Shown: piece after piece, positions 1-44,545 of the stretch | Numbering within the stretch: position 1 is the stretch's first letter | How the letters are laid out: every line of letters begins with the position of its first letter | Origin: Escherichia coli | Lineage (GTDB): Bacteria > Pseudomonadota > Gammaproteobacteria > Enterobacterales > Enterobacteriaceae | Length of the DNA stretch: 44,545 nucleotides | Direction: 5' to 3' (one strand) | NCBI RefSeq assembly: GCF_003334385.1 | Contig: NZ_QOWN01000035.1 | Translations under genes and position numbers: made by a program | The notes under the pieces: model-generated | What the model was told of the DNA's origin: nothing | Databases searched by the model: none | Seen by the model: the letters and a program-made list of their open reading frames with translations, nothing else

Positions 1-107
1 AACGCGAGGCATCGTCTTAACGAGGCACCGAGGCGTCGCATTCTTCAGATGGTTCAACCCTTAAGTTAGCGCTTATGGGCGCAGGCCCCACTTTTTGGAG
101 AAATTGT

Positions 108-6917: not shown

Positions 6918-7040
<123 letters not shown>

Positions 7041-8671: not shown

Positions 8672-12062
<3,391 letters not shown>

Positions 12063-21281: not shown

Positions 21282-22271
21282 TTAGCCGCCAATGTACGAT
21301 AAGTTTTGCGTAATACCGGTGTTGTTTTGATGCAGGAAATGGGTCTGTTTCTTCTCCCGCAGCGCCGCTGAAATACGCGCTTCCAGCGCCTGTTGCTGGG
21401 TATCGTCTTCCAGCAGATCGCGCAGGTTAACGCCGCCTTCACCAAACAGGCAGAGATGGAGTTTACCAATGGAGGAAACGCGCAGGCGGTTGCAAGTGGC
21501 GCAGAAGTCTTTTTCATACGGCATGATAAGGCCAATCTCTCCGGCGTAATCTGGATGGCAAAAGACTTGCGCGGGACCGTCGCTGCGTTGACGTAATTGG
21601 TGGATCCAGCCGCGACGCAGTAGCTCGTCACGCAGAACCTGACCAGAGATGTGATGCTTACGGAAGAGCTCGCTGCCCTCGCCCGTTTCCATCAGTTCGA
21701 TGAAACGCAGCTGGATAGGGCGATGCTGGATCCAGTTCAGAAAGGTGTCGAGCTGGTGATGATTAACATCACGCATCAGCACGGTATTGACTTTGACCTT
21801 CTCAAAACCGGCCTCAAATGCAGCATCAATCCCTGCCATGACCTGGTTGAATTTATCCTGCCCGGTAATAGCGTGAAACTGGCGGGCGTCCAGACTGTCG
21901 ACACTGACGTTAATGCCAGTAAGTCCCGCATCGCGCCAGCTCGCCACATCGCGTTCCAGACGGTAACCATTGGTTGTGACCGCAATCTGGCGGATAGCGT
22001 CGTTTTCCCGCACAGCGGCGATGATATCGGTAAAGTCGCGGCGTAAAGACGGCTCTCCTCCTGTCAGGCGCACTTTTTCGGTGCCCAGACTGGCGAAGGC
22101 GCGCGTAACCCGGCGAATTTCATCGACGGTAAGAAAGCCTTTATTGGTGACGCCGCTCGGTTTGTAGCCATCCGGCAGGCAGTAGGTGCAACGAAAGTTA
22201 CACACATCGGTAATCGACAGGCGCAAGTAGTAAAACTTACGCGCAAATGCATCAGTCAGTTGTGAAGCCAT
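21282..22271 (-). CDS. moaA: GTP 3',8-cyclase (radical SAM), 329 aa
   Basis: CNFRCTYC radical-SAM cysteine motif and C-terminal Fe-S cysteines; start taken at [19 protein letters not shown] (ORF 21282..22352 is N-terminally extended). Confidence 0.9.
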
Positions 22272-22275
22272 GTAC

Positions 22276-22420
22276 ACCTTTCCAGATACGGGAGGCGAAG
22301 TCATTTCTTCCTTCGCCCTGGTGGCAATCTTTACGAGCATTGTCACGGCCAAAGCACCGTATCAGTTGACCCAGGTGCAGAGGCTAGAGTGTTTAGTGGT
22401 TATGCCGATACTAGCGTGTA
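22276..22420 (-). ncRNA. Probable Moco riboswitch in the moaA 5' leader
   Basis: Placement from established knowledge that the E. coli moaABCDE leader carries the Moco RNA motif; I have not verified the conserved structure by folding, and the boundaries are approximate. Confidence 0.4.
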
Positions 22421-23626: not shown

Positions 23627-23740
23627 TGTTTATGCCGGATGCGGCGTGAACGCCTTATCCGGCCTACAAACCGCGCAAATTCAATATATTGCGGAGAAAA
23701 TGTAGGCCTGATAAGCGTAGCGCATCAGGCTGTTTTCCGT
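23627..23740. repeat. RIP-type BIME (second copy)
   Basis: gccggatgcggcgtgaacgccttatccggcctac ... caaattcaatatattgc ... gtaggcctgataagcgtagcgcatcaggc; same orientation as, and nearly identical to, 6918..7040. Confidence 0.65.
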
Positions 23741-23767
23741 TTGTCATCAGTCTTCTTCGCTATCCTG

Positions 23768-28934: not shown

Positions 28935-29971
28935 AATGCTGCCGCGTTGTAATATTCGTCGGTGTCCGGGGTCATCAGCGCCTGTTCAAGACGTTGCTGT
29001 TGTTCGTTATCCCCTGCCAGCACGGCAGTTTGCTGCGGATTTAGCCCCAGTTTGCGGAACAGTTGCAGGTCTTTATCTTCTTCCGGATTCGGCGTGGTCA
29101 GCAGTTTGCAACCGTAGAAAATCGAGTTTGCGCCTGCCATAAAGCACATCGCCTGAGTCTGTTCGTTCATCTGCTCGCGTCCGGCAGAAAGGCGCACGTA
29201 AGAGGTTGGCATCATGATCCGCGCGACCGCAATGGTGCGAATAAAATCAAAGGCATCGACATCATCGTTATCGGCAAGCGGCGTGCCTTTCACCTTCACC
29301 AGCATGTTGATTGGCACGCTTTCCGGCGGCGTCGGCAGGTTTGCCAGTTGCAGCAATAATCCGGCGCGATCTTTTACCGTTTCGCCTAAGCCCACAATGC
29401 CGCCAGAACAGACTTTGATCCCGGCATCGCGCACTTTTTCCAGCGTATCGAGGCGTTCCTGATAAGTGCGTGTGGTGATGATATTGCCGTAAAACTCCGG
29501 CGAGGTGTCCAGGTTGTGGTTGTAGTAATCCAGCCCGGCGTTCGCGAGGCGCTGCGCCTGAGATTCACTCAACGTGCCCAGCGTCATACACGCCTCCAGC
29601 CCCATCGCTTTTACCCCCTGCACCATTTGTTCCAGGTACGGCATATCGCGTTCGTGGGGATTCTTCCACGCCGCGCCCATACAGAAGCGCGTCGATCCTG
29701 CCGCTTTCGCTTTGCGCGCCGACTCCAGCACCTGTTCAACTTCCATCAACCGCTCGGCTTCCAGCCCGGTTTTGTAGCGCGAGCTTTGCGGGCAGTATTT
29801 GCAATCTTCCGGACAAGCTCCGGTCTTAATCGACAGCAACGTGCTGACCTGCACCTGACGAGGATCGAAATGCTGGCGATGCACCTGCTGCGCTTCAAAC
29901 AGCAGATCCAGCAACGGTTTTTCAAATAATTCTGTGACTTGCGACAATGTCCAGCGTGGGCGGTGAGCCAT
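28931..29971 (-). CDS. bioB: biotin synthase (radical SAM), 346 aa
   Basis: CPEDCKYC radical-SAM motif; first gene of the leftward bio operon. Confidence 0.95.
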
Positions 29972-30016
29972 GGGGCTTCTCCAAAACGTGTTTTTTGTTG
30001 TTAATTCGGTGTAGAC

Positions 30017-30050
30017 TTGTAAACCTAAATCTTTTCAATTTGGTTTACAA
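30017..30050. promoter_or_regulatory. bio operator (BirA binding site) between divergent bioA and bioB promoters
   Basis: Imperfect palindrome TTGTAAACC-taaatcttttcaatt-TGGTTTACAA, matching the known bioO sequence. Confidence 0.8.
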
Positions 30051-30057
30051 GTCGATT

Positions 30058-31347
30058 ATGACAACGGACGATCTTGCCTTTGACCAACGCCATATCTGGC
30101 ACCCATACACATCCATGACCTCCCCTCTGCCGGTTTATCCGGTGGTGAGCGCCGAAGGTTGCGAGCTGATTTTGTCTGACGGCAGACGCCTGGTTGACGG
30201 TATGTCGTCCTGGTGGGCGGCGATCCACGGCTACAATCACCCGCAGCTTAATGCGGCGATGAAGTCGCAAATTGATGCCATGTCGCATGTGATGTTTGGC
30301 GGTATCACCCATGCGCCAGCCATTGAGCTGTGCCGCAAACTGGTGGCGATGACGCCGCAACCGCTGGAGTGCGTTTTTCTCGCGGACTCCGGTTCCGTAG
30401 CGGTGGAAGTGGCGATGAAAATGGCGTTGCAGTACTGGCAAGCCAAAGGCGAAGCGCGCCAGCGTTTTCTGACCTTCCGCAATGGTTATCATGGCGATAC
30501 CTTTGGCGCGATGTCGGTGTGCGATCCGGATAACTCAATGCACAGTCTGTGGAAAGGCTACCTGCCAGAAAACCTGTTTGCTCCCGCCCCGCAAAGCCGC
30601 ATGGATGGCGAATGGGATGAGCGCGATATGGTGGGCTTTGCCCGCCTGATGGCGGCGCATCGTCATGAAATCGCGGCGGTGATCATTGAGCCGATTGTCC
30701 AGGGCGCAGGCGGGATGCGCATGTACCATCCGGAATGGTTAAAACGAATCCGCAAAATATGCGATCGCGAAGGTATCTTGCTGATTGCCGACGAGATCGC
30801 CACTGGATTTGGTCGTACCGGGAAACTGTTTGCCTGTGAACATGCAGAAATCGCGCCGGACATTTTGTGCCTCGGTAAAGCCTTAACCGGCGGCACAATG
30901 ACCCTTTCCGCCACACTCACCACGCGCGAGGTTGCAGAAACCATCAGTAACGGTGAAGCCGGTTGCTTTATGCATGGGCCAACTTTTATGGGCAATCCGC
31001 TGGCCTGCGCGGCAGCAAACGCCAGCCTGGCGATTCTCGAATCTGGCGACTGGCAGCAACAGGTGGCGGATATTGAAGTACAGCTGCGCGAGCAACTTGC
31101 CCCCGCCCGTGATGCCGAAATGGTTGCCGATGTGCGCGTACTGGGGGCCATTGGCGTGGTCGAAACCACTCATCCGGTGAATATGGCGGCGCTGCAAAAA
31201 TTCTTTGTCGAACAGGGTGTCTGGATCCGGCCTTTTGGCAAACTGATTTACCTGATGCCGCCCTATATTATTCTCCCGCAACAGTTGCAGCGTCTGACCG
31301 CAGCGGTTAACCGCGCGGTACAGGATGAAACATTTTTTTGCCAATAA
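30058..31347 (+). CDS. bioA: adenosylmethionine-8-amino-7-oxononanoate aminotransferase, 429 aa
   Basis: ORF 29947..31347; start taken at [20 protein letters not shown]...; class III PLP aminotransferase. Confidence 0.9.
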
Positions 31348-31405: not shown

Positions 31406-31882
31406 ATGAAACTCATCAGTAACGATCTGCGCGATGGCGATAAATTGCCGCATCGTCATGTCTTTAACGGCATGGGTTACGATGGCGATAATATTTCACC
31501 GCATCTGGCGTGGGATGATGTTCCTGCGGGAACGAAAAGTTTTGTTGTCACCTGCTACGACCCGGATGCGCCAACCGGCTCCGGCTGGTGGCACTGGGTA
31601 GTTGTTAACTTACCCGCTGATACCCGCGTATTACCGCAAGGGTTTGGCTCTGGTCTGGTAGCAATGCCAGACGGCGTTTTGCAGACGCGTACCGACTTTG
31701 GTAAAACCGGGTACGATGGCGCAGCACCGCCGAAAGGCGAAACTCATCGCTACATTTTTACCGTTCACGCGCTGGATATAGAACGTATTGATGTCGATGA
31801 AGGTGCCAGCGGCGCGATGGTCGGGTTTAACGTTCATTTCCACTCTCTGGCAAGCGCCTCGATTACTGCGATGTTTAGTTAA
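31406..31882 (+). CDS. ybhB: PEBP/Raf-kinase-inhibitor-like family protein, 158 aa
   Basis: Full-length match to K-12 YbhB; the last host gene before attB-lambda. Confidence 0.85.
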   Translation: MKLISNDLRDGDKLPHRHVFNGMGYDGDNISPHLAWDDVPAGTKSFVVTCYDPDAPTGSGWWHWVVVNLPADTRVLPQGFGSGLVAMPDGVLQTRTDFGKTGYDGAAPPKGETHRYIFTVHALDIERIDVDEGASGAMVGFNVHFHSLASASITAMFS

Positions 31883-31972: not shown

Positions 31973-32125
31973 TTAGTATAAAAAAGCTGAACGCGAAACA
32001 TTAAAAACCATTAATATCAATGTGTTACAATATCTTTAGTCTAAAAAATAGACTACATGATGCTACAAAACACAACATATCCAGTCACTATGAATCAACT
32101 ACTTAGATGGTATTAGTGACCTGTA
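31973..32125. other. Prophage attR: lambda-type core plus P arm
   Basis: Core TTAGTATAAAAAAGC is the reverse complement of the lambda core GCTTTTTTATACTAA. The host side matches attB (cgctcaag); the phage side resembles the lambda P arm (cagtcactatgaatcaactacttagatggtattagtgacctgtaacagagcattagcgcaagg) with scattered substitutions. Confidence 0.85.
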
Positions 32126-32612
32126 ACAGAGCATTAGCGCAAGGTGATTTTTTGTCTTCTTGCGCTAATTTTTTGTCAAACACATTACGTCGTTTGCTGA
32201 ATTTACAACCATGCTCAGTATCTCGATAAGCGCAGAGAAATGATGCAATGGTGGGCGGAATGGCTTGATGGGAAGGCTGAGTAATTAATCTTTAATCAGA
32301 GGGTAACAATGCATGGCTCAGTGAACTAAGCCAATCATTTGTGATCTCCAATTGTTAATCTTATTAGTTCTAGATACTTGATTTATGCCATGATGCTTGT
32401 AGATTAGAAAGCAGTAGACTATACAACACTGCGGTCAAATAATTATCAAGCATAATCACGGTATACACATTTTTTTGATAGCGTAAGGATAGTGAGCCAT
32501 CGATGCCATATTCAATATTTATGCAATTTAAGCATGGTTTATATACACTAATTTTCTTAGTGCCCACAAAATCTTTGATTGTACAAAAAACACAGGGGTA
32601 ATGGAGATTTTT

Positions 32613-33779
32613 ATGTTTGACGGATTTAATGGCTTTTTAATTGCTTCTTTATCGGTGATTACTTCACTTTCTGTTGCAAGAATATTTGTCACAGAAACAC
32701 ATTTATCACCTATCAAAGGAAGGAGTGAATCAATTGATGGGCTTAGAGGATTTCTTGCTTTAATGGTTTTCCTTCATCATTCCAGTTTCTGGTGGCAATA
32801 CATACATACTGGGGTTTGGTCTGATCCTGATTCGTTATTTTATACTAATATTGGAAAAATAGCTGTTATTTTCTTTTTTATGATTACAGGCTTCTTGTTC
32901 TTCGGGAAATTGATTTCGAATAAATCAGTAAATTGGGAAGATTTATTTTGGTCAAGAATAATGAGACTAACACCTATGTATCTGGTTTCGTTATCTCTAC
33001 TATTCATAATTGTGTTCTATGTTTCTGATTGGAAAATTAACACAGGAATTGACAATCTCATAATATCTATGGCGAGATGGGTTCCTTTTTCTTTCCTTGG
33101 AATGCCTGATGTTAACGGTCTTCACAAGACGTCGCTTATCATGGCCGGAGTTCCGTGGTCACTTGTTTATGAATGGTTTTTTTATTTATCTCTTCCTTTT
33201 ATGGCTTTTATAATGAGAAGAGACAAATTTAATACTTACACAATTCTTAGTATTGCGAGTGTATTTGCTTTTATTTTCTATCCATCATTAAAAATACATA
33301 TTTTATCATTTGTTTTTGGTTATCTGGCAGCAAAAATAAATCACAAACTGTCTAACGGCTTGCCTTTCAATAAAATATTATCAAGCTTATTCGTCATCGT
33401 TATCTTATGTGTAACTTGTTTTTTAATTCCAAATCCTTACAATCCAATAACAATATCACTCTGTGGTATTGCATTTATTATGATATCAAATGGATGCGAT
33501 ATTTTTGGAGTTCTTAAGATAAAAACCTGTCAAGTTTTTGGAGAAGCTACATATAGCATGTATCTTCTACATGGCATTATACTTTTTATAACATTTAAAA
33601 TAATACTTCCGGTTAGCTATGTTAATCAAATTAACAGCCTTGTATTTTCAGCTATTATTATAATCCTCTCTGGGTTTATCACGCTTATATCATTACTATG
33701 TTTTAGATATATTGAGACACCGTGTAGTAAGTTTAAAAAATTTAATGTACTAACATACACAAGAAGAAAACTTCAGTAA
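32613..33779 (+). CDS. acyltransferase-3 family membrane protein, probable O-antigen O-acetyltransferase (Oac-like), about 388 aa
   Basis: About 10 hydrophobic segments and the AT3 motif R...HH (IDGLRGFLALMVFLHHSS); very AT-rich; sits between the tailspike and att like serotype-conversion genes of P22-like phages. Start at 32613 preferred (GGAG 6 nt upstream) over 32601. Confidence 0.7.
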   Translation: MFDGFNGFLIASLSVITSLSVARIFVTETHLSPIKGRSESIDGLRGFLALMVFLHHSSFWWQYIHTGVWSDPDSLFYTNIGKIAVIFFFMITGFLFFGKLISNKSVNWEDLFWSRIMRLTPMYLVSLSLLFIIVFYVSDWKINTGIDNLIISMARWVPFSFLGMPDVNGLHKTSLIMAGVPWSLVYEWFFYLSLPFMAFIMRRDKFNTYTILSIASVFAFIFYPSLKIHILSFVFGYLAAKINHKLSNGLPFNKILSSLFVIVILCVTCFLIPNPYNPITISLCGIAFIMISNGCDIFGVLKIKTCQVFGEATYSMYLLHGIILFITFKIILPVSYVNQINSLVFSAIIIILSGFITLISLLCFRYIETPCSKFKKFNVLTYTRRKLQ

Positions 33780-33838: not shown

Positions 33839-36175
33839 TCAGATTGGATAATTACTTACTCTAACATCAGCAAAACTAGTTGTTCCTGTCAAGGAAATAT
33901 CCATGCGTTCATCACAAGCAGGAGCAAGAAAAACCTCTACAGCTACACATTCTGATCTTTTAACATGATATATTGCCTGACGCTCAAGCCACGAATTATC
34001 AGATAATAATTTTATTGCAGTATTAGATAACGAATTACCTGTAGAATCCAATTCGCGAAAAATGACCGCCGATGATATTGATGTTTCTGATAACGTCCAT
34101 AGTCTTACATAGACAGCACTTCGTTGAGCTACTCGAAGTGTTGCCACTAATAAACTCTGTACTGATGCGGTATTCTTATCGTTAAGAGTGAATGCATAAG
34201 GCGTACCTACAGGCTTTGTAGTTGCATCTGTTTTCTCTGGCGCAATAGATATAACAGTCTGAAAAAATCTATCCTGATTAGCTAGAATATGACCAGCTAT
34301 GGAACGCATCGGTAGAGGGTTAGTACTATGGACAGCATCACTTCTTCCAACACGAAAACCACCGCCTGTATTCTGGCTATTGGCAGTGATAAATACGTCT
34401 TGGTTATTGTCTACAAACACTTCACCTGAACACGAACTAGTTATGATCTTACCTACAGAGTTAAATCTTGGTTTTATCTCTTGATTGTCAATTCCGCTAA
34501 TTAGTCCAGGCACAAATTCGAATGATACACCAACACCGTTACAGCTAACAGCCGTGATATCTTCAACGTTGATGTCATACCCATTGACAATGCGTACCGC
34601 ATTATTGTTTACCCTTTCGGCATAGACATTTTTAATTCGAATGTGCTGTGATTGGAAGTATGTAGACTCAGAAGGATACGAGTAATTAGTCACGAATATA
34701 CCAGCCAAGCCAGCCACACTGGTTGCTGCAGCAACATACTTTCCACCAAGAACATCAATATTCTCTCCTTGAATTTCAAGAAAATTTTTAGTTGCTTTTG
34801 ATTTTCCTGTTTGAATTCCGATATTGCCAGCAAGGAATACACCACGGCGTGAACCATCCGTAGAGTGATGGCAATCGTTCATGTCGAATGTTTTGCATGC
34901 ATCGATAACCCAATTTTCGCAACCTCTCTTAAAGTCATTCAATGTACGATGGCCGAAAGCAGTGTTGCCGAAACTGAAGATGTTTTTAATGGTATATGTA
35001 CCGTATTCGCCAGGTGAATCAATAGAGCCATTCATACACTTAAATGCATTGAATCCAACAGCGGTAAGCATTGGGTCTGTTCCCTCTGATGAACAATACA
35101 AATAATTAATACCATCAATCATTCCACCATTAGTTGTGTATCCTTCCCATGCTTCATGTGGGCAGTTTTTGAAATGACATCTTAAAGCAGTAATATTGCG
35201 ACCAATGGCACCGTTATTGAAATGCCAGCAGAATGCGCGAATAATCTTCTGCGGCGCAATGTTATTTATTTCGTAACCGTCTTGGTATTGTCCATCAAAA
35301 CAAATATCCTGCAGCATCGCAAAATATAGATCCTTGTCAGGGTTCTTACGGATGAACCAAGAGTAATAGCCAAAGCCATTATTCTCAACGTCTTGCTTTG
35401 TTAGTGAGATTGGTCTGATAGTAGTACTTGACTTACCTGCACCAATCCAATGAAACCAGTCGCCAATTTGCACACTACCACTAAACGAGATCACATCTAT
35501 ACCTCTAAAATCTAGAGGAACCCTTTTATATTCTGATAATATTTGTAATTTATTTATTACCGATGCGCAGTCAACTCCGCTCTGAATGTAGCGACTGCAC
35601 ATGATCGCATCATTGAAATTAGAACCATCCATGACGCATAACCATTGACTATTAAGATTTGGATTTTCTGTTGGCGCTACAGTTTTCGGAAGGGAACCAA
35701 GCCATTGGTAATAAAGTCCATCAGTGTATTTAAGGACCTGTTTTCTATTGGTAATAGTATATCCAGACGCAAAATCGCCATCAATTATTCGACTGTATTC
35801 TGATATTTCGAAATTTCCCTTTGCCCACAAGGAAAACTGATCAGGATCATACTTCAGAACATTCGGAAAATAGAACTGCTGCGCTCCATATGCATCATAA
35901 ACAGCCATCGAATGACCTTGCACAGTTACAAACTTGGCAATCTGCCCGTTATATACAGGATATCCAGCAGCGTTAATGATGATTGGTTGCGATACAGGAA
36001 CATGAGAGCCGTCTTCGTTCTCCACATAAACCTGGATCTGGTTTTCAGTATTTACCGGATCAGTGTCAATTTTTCCGATATAAATCTTTCCATTAGCTAC
36101 GGCTTTAAAAGAACGAGCCATAGTGAAGAGTTGCGAAGGCATGCTTACCACAACATTTGCGGTGATATCTGACAT
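33839..36175 (-). CDS. tailspike protein: P22 gp9-like N-terminal head-binding domain plus divergent receptor-binding domain, about 778 aa
   Basis: From the second ATG (GGAG 7 nt upstream): [42 protein letters not shown]...[15 protein letters not shown]...LKYDPDQFS closely resembles the P22/HK620 tailspike N-terminus; the remaining ~650 aa are divergent and AT-rich. Confidence 0.85.
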
Positions 36176-36270
36176 TTCATTGCTCCAGACGAATGATATG
36201 ATGCAACCATGATGTGATTGCATACCGAAATGGTACTATTGAGTATTTATCCAGTAGGTTACGATGCCAT

Positions 36271-36646: not shown

Positions 36647-39040
36647 CTATTCTGACAGCGCATCAGACTTAGCCCCCTGAGTCAGGGCGTTAATGGCCTT
36701 TTGTGCCTGCTGCATGGCTTTCTCGAACGCTGTTGATCCGCGTGGGGTGTTTGCCATTCGGAGCATTGCATTTCTGAATGGCTCGCTCTCATAGGCGCGA
36801 GTAAGAAGTCCGTAGCTTACCGCTGCGCCAGTTGTCGCAGGGTTCATTGCCGTCCCATACCCGATAATGAACGGGATGGTTTGCTGCCCTGTTGGTGTTG
36901 TTACTGCCGCTTTTGCAGCCTGCTGCGTGGATTGCAGGTAGTTTTTCAATCCTTTCAGATAAGCAGCGTCCTGCCCCTTAAATGTGATGCCAGTCTGGTT
37001 TTGCAGGATGTTAAGCTGCCGAAGGAACTGGTCAGGGGATCCGCCAGATTTCTCCATCGCCTTTCCAATGATGCCATTGCGCATTTGCGCCCTGCCAACA
37101 CGACCAACTGAGTTATACAGCGTCTTAATTTCCGATTTGTTCTTGCTGAATAGCATGTTGTTGACAACTTCCGGCGTCAGATCGCCTTTCATGAGAACAT
37201 TCTTCAGCCTGGTATTCTTTAGTTTCGCGGCTTCGTCAGCGTAGACGGCATTGGCCTGCTGATATTTACGGAGAGTATCGTTGCCAAGATTCTGACCAAT
37301 GGCACCATTGATATCGTCGGTCATTGCCTTGTAAACGCGCTGAATGGCAGCATCGGAACGGTTTGGTAACACTGGTCGCTCACCCTTCACGTCCATTCTG
37401 AACTGGCTGCGCAGATCGCTTAATTGCTTCAAATCCAGATTTACCGGACCATCAGGACCAGCATTGCGAACAAGCTCATCACGATATGACTGAAGTTTTG
37501 AAATTGTCTCGTTATCAGCGACCTTACCAAGCTTCTGCAGATTAGATATTTCTGTATCAATCTGCTGAATTGCTCGCGCTGGCTGAATGTTTACTCCAGC
37601 CATAGCATTCTGAACCTGCTCCAGTCGATTACCGGCGGCACGACGAATTCCTGATGTTTTCGCTTTAAGGCTGTCAATAACAACCGCTGGATCATACTCA
37701 CCGAATTTATCGGCAAATCTCTGCACCAACTGGCTTCTCGCTTCCTGTTGCGTTGCTCTCATTCCGCTTGTGCCAGCCAGGGGGATATTTTCTGCTGTAG
37801 TCTGCGCCATTTTCCCGACGCGGGAAGTAGGCTGTAACAGGTCTGTGGTGTGCAGAGGAACTCCTTCACGCTCTGCAAACCTGATAGCCTGTTGAGCTTC
37901 TGGTGCTATCGAACCACGAACACCACGATAAGCAGAACCTAATCCACGTCCGGCAGCGTTAATAGCACCGCCAGCCAGCACACCAACGCCTAAATCGGTG
38001 GCGAGTGCTTCCGCATCATCTTTCGCACTGTTTGCAGCAAGTGATCCAACTGCGTTTTCTGCTAGAAGGCGAGTTGCCCCCTGAGCAATTCGACCAGCAA
38101 GTGTTGGTGACTGTGTTGCCGCTCTCTCAACGCCAGCAGGAGTGAGGTAAGGCAATGCTTCAGCAAATACCCTTCCCTCTGTCGTTTGTGGAGTCAGCGC
38201 GCCTTGCTGAAGGCCAAAGTCCTGCTCTAATCCCTGCGTTGTTACTCGTGGTGCTGGTTGATATGTACCATCGCCAATGCCGAGTTTACCTCCAGCCCAA
38301 GCCGCCGCGCTTGTTACAGCATCAGTGAGTTCAGCAGGTATGTTCGCTACGTTGATTCCTGCCTGTAGTAAGCCGCGCCCGGTTTCAGCAAGTCCATTAC
38401 CAAGGTCAGACATTATTCCGCCTTGCTGCTGAACAGGTTTCGGTGCGACAGAACTTACGGGTTGAGGTGGCTGCTGACTGGCTGCCTGCTGCTCAATCTG
38501 AGCAAATGGATTATTTGGGTCTGACTGCACGCCTGATGCCGATACTTGTTCGGATGACTGTGCTTCCAGTTGTGCAAACGGGTTGTTAGGGTCTTGCTGA
38601 GGATGTACCTTTGCAGAGGTGGCGCGCTGTTCGACTGTTGAGTCTGTCACCGGGTCACCCGCCCATTGAGCAAAGCGATCATCAACGTAACCGCGGCCTT
38701 CAGATCCTGGCGTATATTCACCACGCTTTGCCTTCATAACGTTGCCGGGACCGTCGTGATAAGCCTGAAGAGCGTCACGCCAGTTACCAAACTGCTGGTA
38801 CATCTTTGCCAGATAGCGCGCGCCAGCGTCAGCCTGATATTCGGGGTTTTGCATTTGCTCATCGGTATAACCCATATCACGCCATGTCCCAGGCATGACC
38901 TGAGTCAATCCTACAGCCCCGGCGGAGCTTACTGCGGCAGGGTTGTAAGAAGACTCCTTGGCACCCAGTGCAGTCATCAACCCTTCTGGCACACCGTAAC
39001 GTGCGCCAGCCTGCTCTAACAAATCACGGTAATTAGCCAT
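36647..39040 (-). CDS. virion ejection/internal protein at the P22 gp16 position, with an N-terminal lytic transglycosylase (SLT) domain, 797 aa
   Basis: N-terminus carries an SLT-like catalytic motif (GAKESSYNPAAVSSAGAVGLTQVMPGTW...YLAKMY), followed by a tandem DPNNPFAQ(L/I)E repeat and a long Ala/Gln-rich region; last gene of the ejection-protein block. Confidence 0.7.
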   Translation of the reverse strand: MANYRDLLEQAGARYGVPEGLMTALGAKESSYNPAAVSSAGAVGLTQVMPGTWRDMGYTDEQMQNPEYQADAGARYLAKMYQQFGNWRDALQAYHDGPGNVMKAKRGEYTPGSEGRGYVDDRFAQWAGDPVTDSTVEQRATSAKVHPQQDPNNPFAQLEAQSSEQVSASGVQSDPNNPFAQIEQQAASQQPPQPVSSVAPKPVQQQGGIMSDLGNGLAETGRGLLQAGINVANIPAELTDAVTSAAAWAGGKLGIGDGTYQPAPRVTTQGLEQDFGLQQGALTPQTTEGRVFAEALPYLTPAGVERAATQSPTLAGRIAQGATRLLAENAVGSLAANSAKDDAEALATDLGVGVLAGGAINAAGRGLGSAYRGVRGSIAPEAQQAIRFAEREGVPLHTTDLLQPTSRVGKMAQTTAENIPLAGTSGMRATQQEARSQLVQRFADKFGEYDPAVVIDSLKAKTSGIRRAAGNRLEQVQNAMAGVNIQPARAIQQIDTEISNLQKLGKVADNETISKLQSYRDELVRNAGPDGPVNLDLKQLSDLRSQFRMDVKGERPVLPNRSDAAIQRVYKAMTDDINGAIGQNLGNDTLRKYQQANAVYADEAAKLKNTRLKNVLMKGDLTPEVVNNMLFSKNKSEIKTLYNSVGRVGRAQMRNGIIGKAMEKSGGSPDQFLRQLNILQNQTGITFKGQDAAYLKGLKNYLQSTQQAAKAAVTTPTGQQTIPFIIGYGTAMNPATTGAAVSYGLLTRAYESEPFRNAMLRMANTPRGSTAFEKAMQQAQKAINALTQGAKSDALSE

Positions 39041-43807: not shown

Positions 43808-44269
43808 TCACGTACTCGGATCATCTTTCTCGATGTAAAACCGATTCCACGTAAACGCGCTTTTGTTACCACTACCGCGAGGCATGTCATTTCGCCGCTC
43901 AAGTGGTGGTATTTTGGTTAAAGCGATACAGATTGTCTGATATGCGCTGTCGGCAGCGGTAAGGAGAGCGTCTGCCGGCTGAATGACGTTATCCATGCAC
44001 ACTTGCACAGCGAGTTTCAAAGCGACGCCATCATTTGCCCATGCAGGGATACCTGAATCATCGTCAGGTAACGGCATGATGCCGTTTTCTGTATCAGCAA
44101 ACTGATACCCAAGCTCGATACCTTTCGCCTGCCATGCTGCCATCATGTCTTCGAGGTCATTAATGGCATCTTCAATTGCCTGAGGGTCAGCATCTGTCAA
44201 CGTGGCATTGGAATACAGCCCGGCTTTTCGTAAAGCCTTTAGAACGAGATCACCCTTCGTTTTCGCCAT
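43808..44269 (-). CDS. tail accessory factor gp4-like, 153 aa
   Basis: N-terminus (MAKTKGDLVLKALRKAGLYSNATLTD...DLEDMMAAWQAKGI) resembles P22 gp4; sits directly upstream of gp10 as in P22. Confidence 0.7.
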   Translation of the reverse strand: MAKTKGDLVLKALRKAGLYSNATLTDADPQAIEDAINDLEDMMAAWQAKGIELGYQFADTENGIMPLPDDDSGIPAWANDGVALKLAVQVCMDNVIQPADALLTAADSAYQTICIALTKIPPLERRNDMPRGSGNKSAFTWNRFYIEKDDPST

Positions 44270-44438
44270 CTTCTTCCGCCTTAGCCACTTTTTGCTTCGT
44301 TGCGGTTTCTTCAGGAGTTTTTACCCAACCTTTTTTCAGGTGAGATTTAACTTCTTCGTCATCAACAATGATGTAATCGACAGCAAACTGACCACAGGTG
44401 ATCATGTTGCCCGGCTTATAGAGCATTGTTCGTGCCAT
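44250..44438 (-). CDS. small hypothetical protein with acidic/lysine-rich C-terminus, 62 aa
   Basis: ORF with a GGAGAA Shine-Dalgarno 6 nt upstream, preceded by a terminator-like hairpin; overlaps the gp4 start by 20 bp. No family recognised. Confidence 0.4.
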   Translation of the reverse strand: MARTMLYKPGNMITCGQFAVDYIIVDDEEVKSHLKKGWVKTPEETATKQKVAKAEEDGENEG

Positions 44439-44459
44439 TGTCTTCTCCCAATAAAAATG

Positions 44460-44471
44460 GGGCCGAAGCCC
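44460..44471 (-). terminator. GC hairpin plus T-tract downstream of an upstream late gene whose 3' end lies at the window edge
   Basis: On the minus strand GGGC-TTCG-GCCC followed by cATTTTTATT, then the Shine-Dalgarno and ATG of the 62-aa ORF. Confidence 0.5.
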
Positions 44472-44545
44472 ATAAGCGCTAACTTAAGGGTTGTGGTATT
44501 ACGCCTGATATGATTTAACGTGCCGATGAATTACTCTCACGATAA

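Follow-up and report, generated by a model that had tools for sequence, protein, structure and literature searches.

A very probable insertion of IS186/IS421 into the post-coat stem-loop of a P22-like prophage of Escherichia coli

Introduction

The far end of the window (the whole stretch of 44,545 nt of Escherichia coli DNA analysed here) carries on its minus strand a hairpin, a T-run, a Shine-Dalgarno-like motif and the ATG of a 62-aa ORF. All of these elements are present where a sequence-only reading had located them, with the motif given there as GGAGAA and read here as GGGAG. That reading took the hairpin for a terminator or attenuator between an upstream late gene, presumed to be the coat gene, and the small ORF, and regarded it as the phage copy of a shared module. 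The question raised by this locus is what the segment 44439-44493 represents. Comparison of the segment with complete bacterial genomes and phage records leads us to interpret it, with high confidence, as a transposon-host junction, at which IS186/IS421 would have inserted into the post-coat stem-loop of a CUS-3/Sf101-like (P22-like) prophage. The feature is a known element interrupted by a known insertion sequence, that is, an ordinary transposon junction and no new regulatory element.

Structure of the junction

By direct reading, the minus-strand order at the end of the window is ggcgTAAtacca-CAACCCTTAAGTTAGCGCTTATG-GGCTTCGGCC-CCATTTTTATT-GGGAG-aagaca-ATG. The following features were distinguished:

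44471-44468, 44467-44464 and 44463-44460, minus strand: hairpin arm GGGC, loop TTCG and arm GCCC
44458 and 44457-44453, minus strand: A, followed by the T-run TTTTT
44445-44449, minus strand: Shine-Dalgarno-like GGGAG (direct reading), 6 nt 5' of the ATG (44438-44436) of the 62-aa ORF
44471..44545, plus strand: IS186/IS421 left end, matching the start of the 1339-bp IS421 annotated in E. coli VG48B2 at 75/75 positions
44471-44493, plus strand: 23-bp terminal inverted repeat CATAAGCGCTAACTTAAGGGTTG, exact match
44461..44470, minus strand: ORF-proximal copy of the expected 10-bp target duplication GGCTTCGGCC, from comparison with VG48B2 and CUS-3
44450..44473, minus strand: remnant of the post-coat stem-loop, ATG-GGC TTCG GCCCCAT and then TTTTTATT, with the first three bases coming from the IS

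The part of the IS that lies in the window consists of the 23-bp repeat, the leader and the first 20 nt of the transposase gene, and the element leaves the window after 75 nt. The transposase ATG was located at 44526 on the plus strand, with the start sequence ATGAATTAC, by a script comparison with the VG48B2 element. The latter is 1339 bp long and has perfect 23-bp terminal repeats and a full 370-aa transposase ORF (IS4 family, DDE). On the phage side of the junction, a megablast search against phages showed that CUS-3, Sf101, Kapi1 and other phages are homologous to the window from exactly 44471, while the last 74 nt of the window are missing in them. The coat-proximal copy of GGCTTCGGCC would be expected on the far side of the IS, past the end of the window.

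The partial reading frame that had been proposed as the 3' end of an upstream late gene turned out to belong to the insertion sequence. The minus-strand frame at 44543-44499 contains only 14 open codons and a TAA, and since 44471-44545 is identical to the IS left end at every position, this frame corresponds to the antisense of the IS leader and of the transposase start. Two other assignments at the junction were rejected. An IS1 end had been considered as the identity of the 51 nt past the repeat and was ruled out by the alignment, which gives the IS186 left end. A 103-aa ORF on the plus strand (44202-44513) is spurious, lying antisense to the 62-aa ORF and forming a chimera across the hairpin and the IS junction.

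The hairpin of the window was picked up by a terminator scan; such sites occurred nine times in this 4.5-kb region against 4.8 +/- 2.5 in shuffled sequences, and therefore the hairpin is not significant by itself. Its significance is taken to lie in conservation among other phages and not in the scan score. The GGGAG motif is likewise kept in CUS-3 and in the relatives from IMG/VR.

The 62-aa ORF and its gene context

Two genes adjoin the junction:

44250..44438, minus strand: 62-aa ORF, PHROG 1175 of unknown function (phrog_1175, E 9.2e-29, residues 2-56)
43808..44269, minus strand: gp4-like head-tail adaptor (Ad3) of 153 aa (phrog_637, E 1.9e-69)

The 62-aa ORF and the gp4-like gene share 20 nt, at the end of the former and the start of the latter. 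Downstream of the 62-aa ORF lie genes for the gp4-like adaptor, a gp10-like head closure protein and a tail needle with knob, and on this basis the region was assigned to the late genes of a P22-like phage.

In the sequence-only reading, no P22 counterpart of the 62-aa ORF had been recognised. A homologue search provided one, orf69, which occupies the same position and belongs to the same PHROG 1175. P22 orf69 matches phrog_1175 at E 4.5e-31, and a BLASTP comparison of the 62-aa ORF with orf69 gave E 4e-7. The small P22 protein is encoded between gene 5 and gene 4 and has the same overlap with the gene 4 start, but the two proteins share only 26% identity and differ in length (69 aa in P22 and 62 aa here). 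Identical or near-identical 62-aa ORFs were found in 11 phage records. Searches of Pfam and PDB sequences gave no match for the 62-aa protein, and a title-level literature search on orf69 and P22 returned nothing on point. Gp6 of Sf6 was considered as a further relative and rejected; it occupies the same position, but the comparison gave E 0.92 and the protein belongs to a different family, PHROG 3251.

Distribution of the insertion and a second copy in the window

The collection of complete E. coli genomes used for comparison comprised 5426 genomes. When searched with a 446-nt query, it yielded matches at 8908 places, with at most 22 per genome and 767 of them on plasmids. Such multi-copy matches on chromosomes and plasmids indicate the behaviour of an insertion sequence. 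The best match was in VG48B2, where a coat pseudogene of P22 type and the same 62-aa ORF flank an annotated "IS4-like element IS421 family transposase". This is the only one of the 411 complete E. coli genomes carrying the phage module in which the IS repeat stands next to the module; it is absent from there in the other 410. The IS of VG48B2 is inserted in the opposite orientation, so that its right end faces the small ORF, whereas in the window the left end does. Because of these opposite orientations, the two insertions are considered independent events at the same position. An insertion in the orientation of the window was not found in any complete genome or phage record searched, the exact IS-phage junction had no match among IMG/VR viral contigs, and the IS was absent from all 80 relative loci of IMG/VR. 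The VG48B2 prophage itself (locus L002, 1-4000) is badly degraded, with a coat gene that lacks its N-terminus, a truncated erf and an IS2 close by.

The opposite end of the window contains a second copy of the element, between fiu and ybiX:

1..77, plus strand: IS186/IS421 right end, 77/77 identical to the last 77 nt of IS421 in VG48B2 and in strain 510016
55-77: terminal inverted repeat of the second copy, reverse complement of CATAAGCGCTAACTTAAGGGTTG, exact match
78-87, plus strand: ybiX-proximal 10-bp target duplication GGCGCAGGCC, both flanks of which are seen in strain 510016
within 78..100, plus strand: remainder of the fiu terminator-like hairpin and T-run (CCACTTTTT), then GGAG

The start of ybiX follows at 108. 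Positions 1-400 of the window are 100% identical to strains such as 510016, in which the gene order is fiu - IS421 - ybiX and GGCGCAGGCC stands on both flanks of the IS. The IS-free, K-12-type site is TGATTCAGATGTGGGGCGCAGGCCCCACTTTTTGGAGAA, and this allele reads TGA-ttcagatgt-GGGGCGCAGGCCCC-ACTTTTT-GGAGAA-attgt-ATG, with a terminator-like hairpin 3' of fiu. The IS repeat was found between fiu and ybiX in 87 of the 5426 complete genomes. The 52 and 54 nt that adjoin the repeat in the two copies of the window are 100% identical to IS421, one at its left and the other at its right end. In strain 510016, the fiu-ybiX IS421 (locus L003, 2294-3406) is annotated as a pseudogene with an internal stop; over 1339 positions, it shows 2 differences from the copy in VG48B2.

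Both copies in the window have the same, direct orientation, with their transposases on the plus strand. Both ends of the window fall within IS186 copies, at a depth of 75 and 77 nt, a pattern suggesting that a short-read contig ended at this repeat. If both copies are complete, recombination between them could delete or amplify the segment of ~44.4 kb that extends from ybiX to the prophage tail genes.

In place of a complete element, the sequence at 44471-44545 could be a solo or truncated IS186 end, left by an IS-mediated deletion or rearrangement, in which case the coat and head genes may be missing. We regard this as improbable, though it has several points on its side: the window stops 75 nt into the IS, directly oriented IS186 copies flank the whole 44.4-kb segment, and the prophage interrupted at this site in VG48B2 is extensively decayed (partial coat gene, IS2). 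Nothing speaks directly against such a remnant, and a contig break at a repeat tells nothing about the sequence beyond. We retain the insertion of IS186/IS421 into the post-coat stem-loop as the preferred interpretation of the junction.

The native stem-loop of P22-like phages

In CUS-3, Sf101 and all 80 IMG/VR loci, the hairpin GGGGCTTCGGCCCC and a T-run directly follow the coat stop codon. The coat stop of CUS-3 is located 7 nt 5' of GGTGGGGC-TTCG-GCCCCATT, after which come the T-run, GGGAG and the start codon (ATG) of the small ORF; among intact relatives, the distance from the stop codon to the hairpin is 7-9 nt. The GGGGC-N4-GCCCC core is kept in the 80 IMG/VR relatives with the exception of one stem variant and one loop variant, also in those whose coat 3' end or downstream leader belongs to a different mosaic type. 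When folded with RNAfold, the intact CUS-3 form has an 8-bp stem and a UUCG loop followed by AUUUUUAUU, and thus combines the GC-rich stem-loop and the U-tract of a terminator.

At three IMG/VR loci (L051, L041 and L044), different coat 3' ends and different leaders meet at the same GGGGCTTCGGCCCC hairpin (window 44459-44472), ~300 nt upstream of gp4. Since these sequences join at one and the same hairpin, the stem-loop coincides with a mosaic boundary.

Folding was applied to the 70 nt that follow the coat stop codon in nine diverse P22-like relatives. A GC-rich post-coat hairpin was obtained in eight of them (CUS-3, Sf6, P22, HF4s, IME10, APSE-2, Sortsne and Aeromonas 4_4512), and it is followed by a T-run in seven of these eight, the T-run of Aeromonas 4_4512 being weak. 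No GC-rich hairpin was seen by folding within the 70 nt after the coat stop in Ralstonia Firinga. The stem sequences vary with compensation between the two arms, as in IME10 (GGGAGC/GCUCCC) and APSE-2 (GGGCGC/GUGCCC). Both-sided changes occur in two of the six pairs (A-U/G-C/U-A and G-C/A-U/C-G), with a covariation score of 0.42 compared to 0.14 in shuffled data; the hairpins were hand-picked from minimum-free-energy folds, and their 100% pairing is partly by construction.

The stem-loop is already present in several annotations. It is recorded as the likely terminator 't coat' in Sf6 (NC_005344, 6147-6173), as a stem_loop in P22 (NC_002371, 6102-6119) and as a predicted terminator in HF4s; the P22 record describes it as 'similar in location to stem-loops in phage HK97 and phage lambda'. 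Both the Sf6 and the P22 element occur at the same place as the one studied here, after the coat stop and before a small ORF overlapping the gp4 homologue, and have the same GGGGC/GCCCC core and T-run. They differ in their loops, which are TTAC and TGCG in contrast to TTCG here, and in the window copy, whose 5' arm is shortened, the IS has displaced the coat gene.

The native hairpin is most likely a partial intrinsic terminator and/or a 3' stabiliser of the coat mRNA. A comparable arrangement exists in phage T7, in which the partial intrinsic terminator Tphi follows the major capsid gene 10 and results in more capsid than downstream message. The two cases are alike in having a terminator after the most abundant structural gene and differ in the polymerase and the phage family. 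Late transcription of the P22 type is antiterminated by gp23, and the effect of an intrinsic terminator is less clear there. A literature search on the function of the post-coat stem-loop yielded nothing relevant, and a search of the whole window against Rfam at gathering thresholds gave no family at 44439-44493 or at 55-95.

A terminator or attenuator after the coat gene is therefore a reasonable idea for the intact phage, where it agrees with the layout of CUS-3 and with the annotations of Sf6, P22 and HF4s, yet it is an existing annotation and not a discovery. For the window it fails, as the IS stands upstream. In the same way, the placement of the coat gene upstream of the hairpin, deduced from P22 gene order, is correct for CUS-3 and the intact relatives, but in the window that place is taken by the IS end. 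It is thus extremely unlikely that the hairpin of this window adjoins the 3' end of a late (coat) gene on one side and the small ORF on the other and acts there as an attenuator, although intact relatives do have such a layout, with a coat stop 7-9 nt before the hairpin. In the window, all of the 75 nt upstream belong to the left end of IS186/IS421, whose transposase ATG is on the opposite strand; similarity to CUS-3 and Sf101 ends at 44471; and the open frame has only 14 codons.

Target preference of IS186 and the apparent shared module

A repeat search of the window detected a single long inverted pair, formed by 55-95 and 44453-44493, with a length of 41 nt and 90% complementarity. The "shared module" of the sequence-only reading resolves into an IS terminal inverted repeat and an IS target signature, and is not a regulatory cassette common to phage and chromosome. 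According to PMC6925257, which cites Chong 1985, SaiSree 2001 and Lee 2016, the preferred target of IS186 is 5'-GGGG(N6/N7)CCCC. The transposase favours GGGG-N6-CCCC, and the central 10 bp (GG-N6-CC) are duplicated.

The intact alleles GGGGCTTCGGCCCC of the phage (CUS-3) and GGGGCGCAGGCCCC of fiu both fit GGGG-N6-CCCC. The intact phage site in CUS-3 reads GGTGG-GGCTTCGGCC-CCATTTTT, and in VG48B2 the IS at the same site carries GGCTTCGGCC on both flanks, corresponding to a 10-bp duplication. Inside the window, one flank is visible for each IS copy, while two-sided 10-bp duplications are seen in VG48B2 for the phage site and in strain 510016 for fiu-ybiX. The outside flank GG-N6-CCCC was observed at all nine independent IS186 ends that were long enough to read, including Escherichia albertii and several contigs. 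When species-representative genomes were scanned for the 23-mer, only seven loci were obtained, mostly on short contigs or contaminants, with readable flanks that are too few for statistics.

On this comparison, the 26-mer common to both ends of the window consists of the 23-bp terminal inverted repeat of the IS and the adjoining GGC from the target duplication, and the shared 26/41-mer is the 23-bp IS repeat followed by the target signature GGC-N4-GGCCCC. The likeness of the flanks beyond the 23-mer is explained by this signature because both sites are GGGG-N6-CCCC. The T-runs and GGAG motifs after the two copies are two unrelated terminator-plus-RBS arrangements, and a T-run is not present at most of the other IS186 sites read. 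The 23-bp repeat, the end sequences, the GGGG-N6-CCCC target and the 10-bp duplication in sister insertions are those of IS186/IS421, an element of the IS4 family for which a hot spot at the lon promoter is known; new here is the site, the post-coat stem-loop of a P22-like prophage, with 75 nt of the element in the window.

An exchange of a terminator or regulatory cassette between the fiu-ybiX chromosomal site and the phage, or a small independent mobile element, would also produce 41 nt that are 90% complementary at the two ends of the window and followed at both by a T-run, GGAG and ATG. This origin has next to no probability, as the identical part is exactly the IS186 repeat and runs into the IS interior at both copies, the loops of the flanks differ (TTCG and GCAG), neither site has an Rfam family, and intact alleles without the 23-mer are found both at fiu-ybiX (5317 of 5404) and at the phage site (410 of 411). 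For scans based on sequence only, the case is a caution that a striking "shared module" of phage and chromosome can be a common IS end with its target signature.

Two of the seven distinct IS186 sites seen are terminator hairpins. It is conceivable, if unlikely, that the post-coat stem (GGGGC-N4-GCCCC, also in P22 and Sf6) is a recurrent hot spot of IS186 and that IS186 generally homes to GC-rich terminator stems. If true, insertion at the hot spot would in each case break the link between the coat gene and the tail-accessory genes, and would in this way help to keep the prophage fixed in the chromosome.

The damaged hairpin and probable polarity

The first G of the GGGC arm in the window is the last base of the IS and replaces one native G. 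As this G belongs to the IS, the native stem GGTGGGGC/GCCCCATT has been truncated by the insertion. What is left is either GGGC/GCCC or AUGGGC/GCCCCAU with a bulge, amounting to 4-6 bp. In the window copy, the minimum-free-energy structure lacks the hairpin because the IS repeat pairs with itself. This copy is an interrupted member of the stem-loop family: an IS end lies upstream, the coat gene is not visible, and the hairpin does not directly follow a coat stop.

In the proposed mechanism, the IS would separate the coat gene from the 62-aa ORF, gp4, gp10 and the genes beyond. The element is antisense to late transcription, and the strand read by the late transcript carries a terminator-like GCCGGAAAGGGAGCTCCGGC followed by TTTTTTATTA. 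A search for outward sigma-70-like promoters in the IS found none in either direction. Given its antisense position and its own strong terminator-like hairpin, the insertion is probably polar on the 62-aa ORF, gp4, gp10 and the later genes, unless a polymerase antiterminated in the manner of gp23 reads through. The late operon would then be cut between the coat and head-completion genes, and the lysogen may not yield viable phage.

Other features of the window

An exact copy of the phage lambda att core, GCTTTTTTATACTAA, occurs at 31973-31987 on the minus strand (0 expected by chance), just beyond ybhB (31406-31882) and bioA (29947-31347). From this position of the att core beside ybhB and bioA, the P22-like prophage seems to occupy the lambda attachment site, its tail/tailspike end pointing towards ybhB. 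Between the att core and the putative tailspike gene lies a 392-aa ORF (32601-33779, plus strand) with a weak match to a VanT membrane acyltransferase domain (E 1.9e-7); as in Sf101 and Sf6, this gene may encode an O-antigen acetyltransferase of serotype conversion. The 794-aa ORF at the tailspike position (33839-36223, minus strand) had no NCBIfam match. At the position of the P22 ejection protein gp16, the minus strand encodes a 797-aa protein (36647-39040) with an N-terminal lytic transglycosylase domain (residues 3-103, E 1e-20), which is larger than the 609-aa P22 gp16.

Elsewhere in the window, an Rfam search identified a Moco riboswitch (103.6 bits) at 22259-22403 on the minus strand, upstream of a 356-aa ORF (21282-22352, minus strand). 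The same database gave naRNA4/REP-type repeats at 1657-1727 and two ES036 elements at 6963-7005 and 23668-23709, all on the plus strand. REP-like repeat families D1-D4 were found at 1653-1777, 6924-7040 and 23629-23744.
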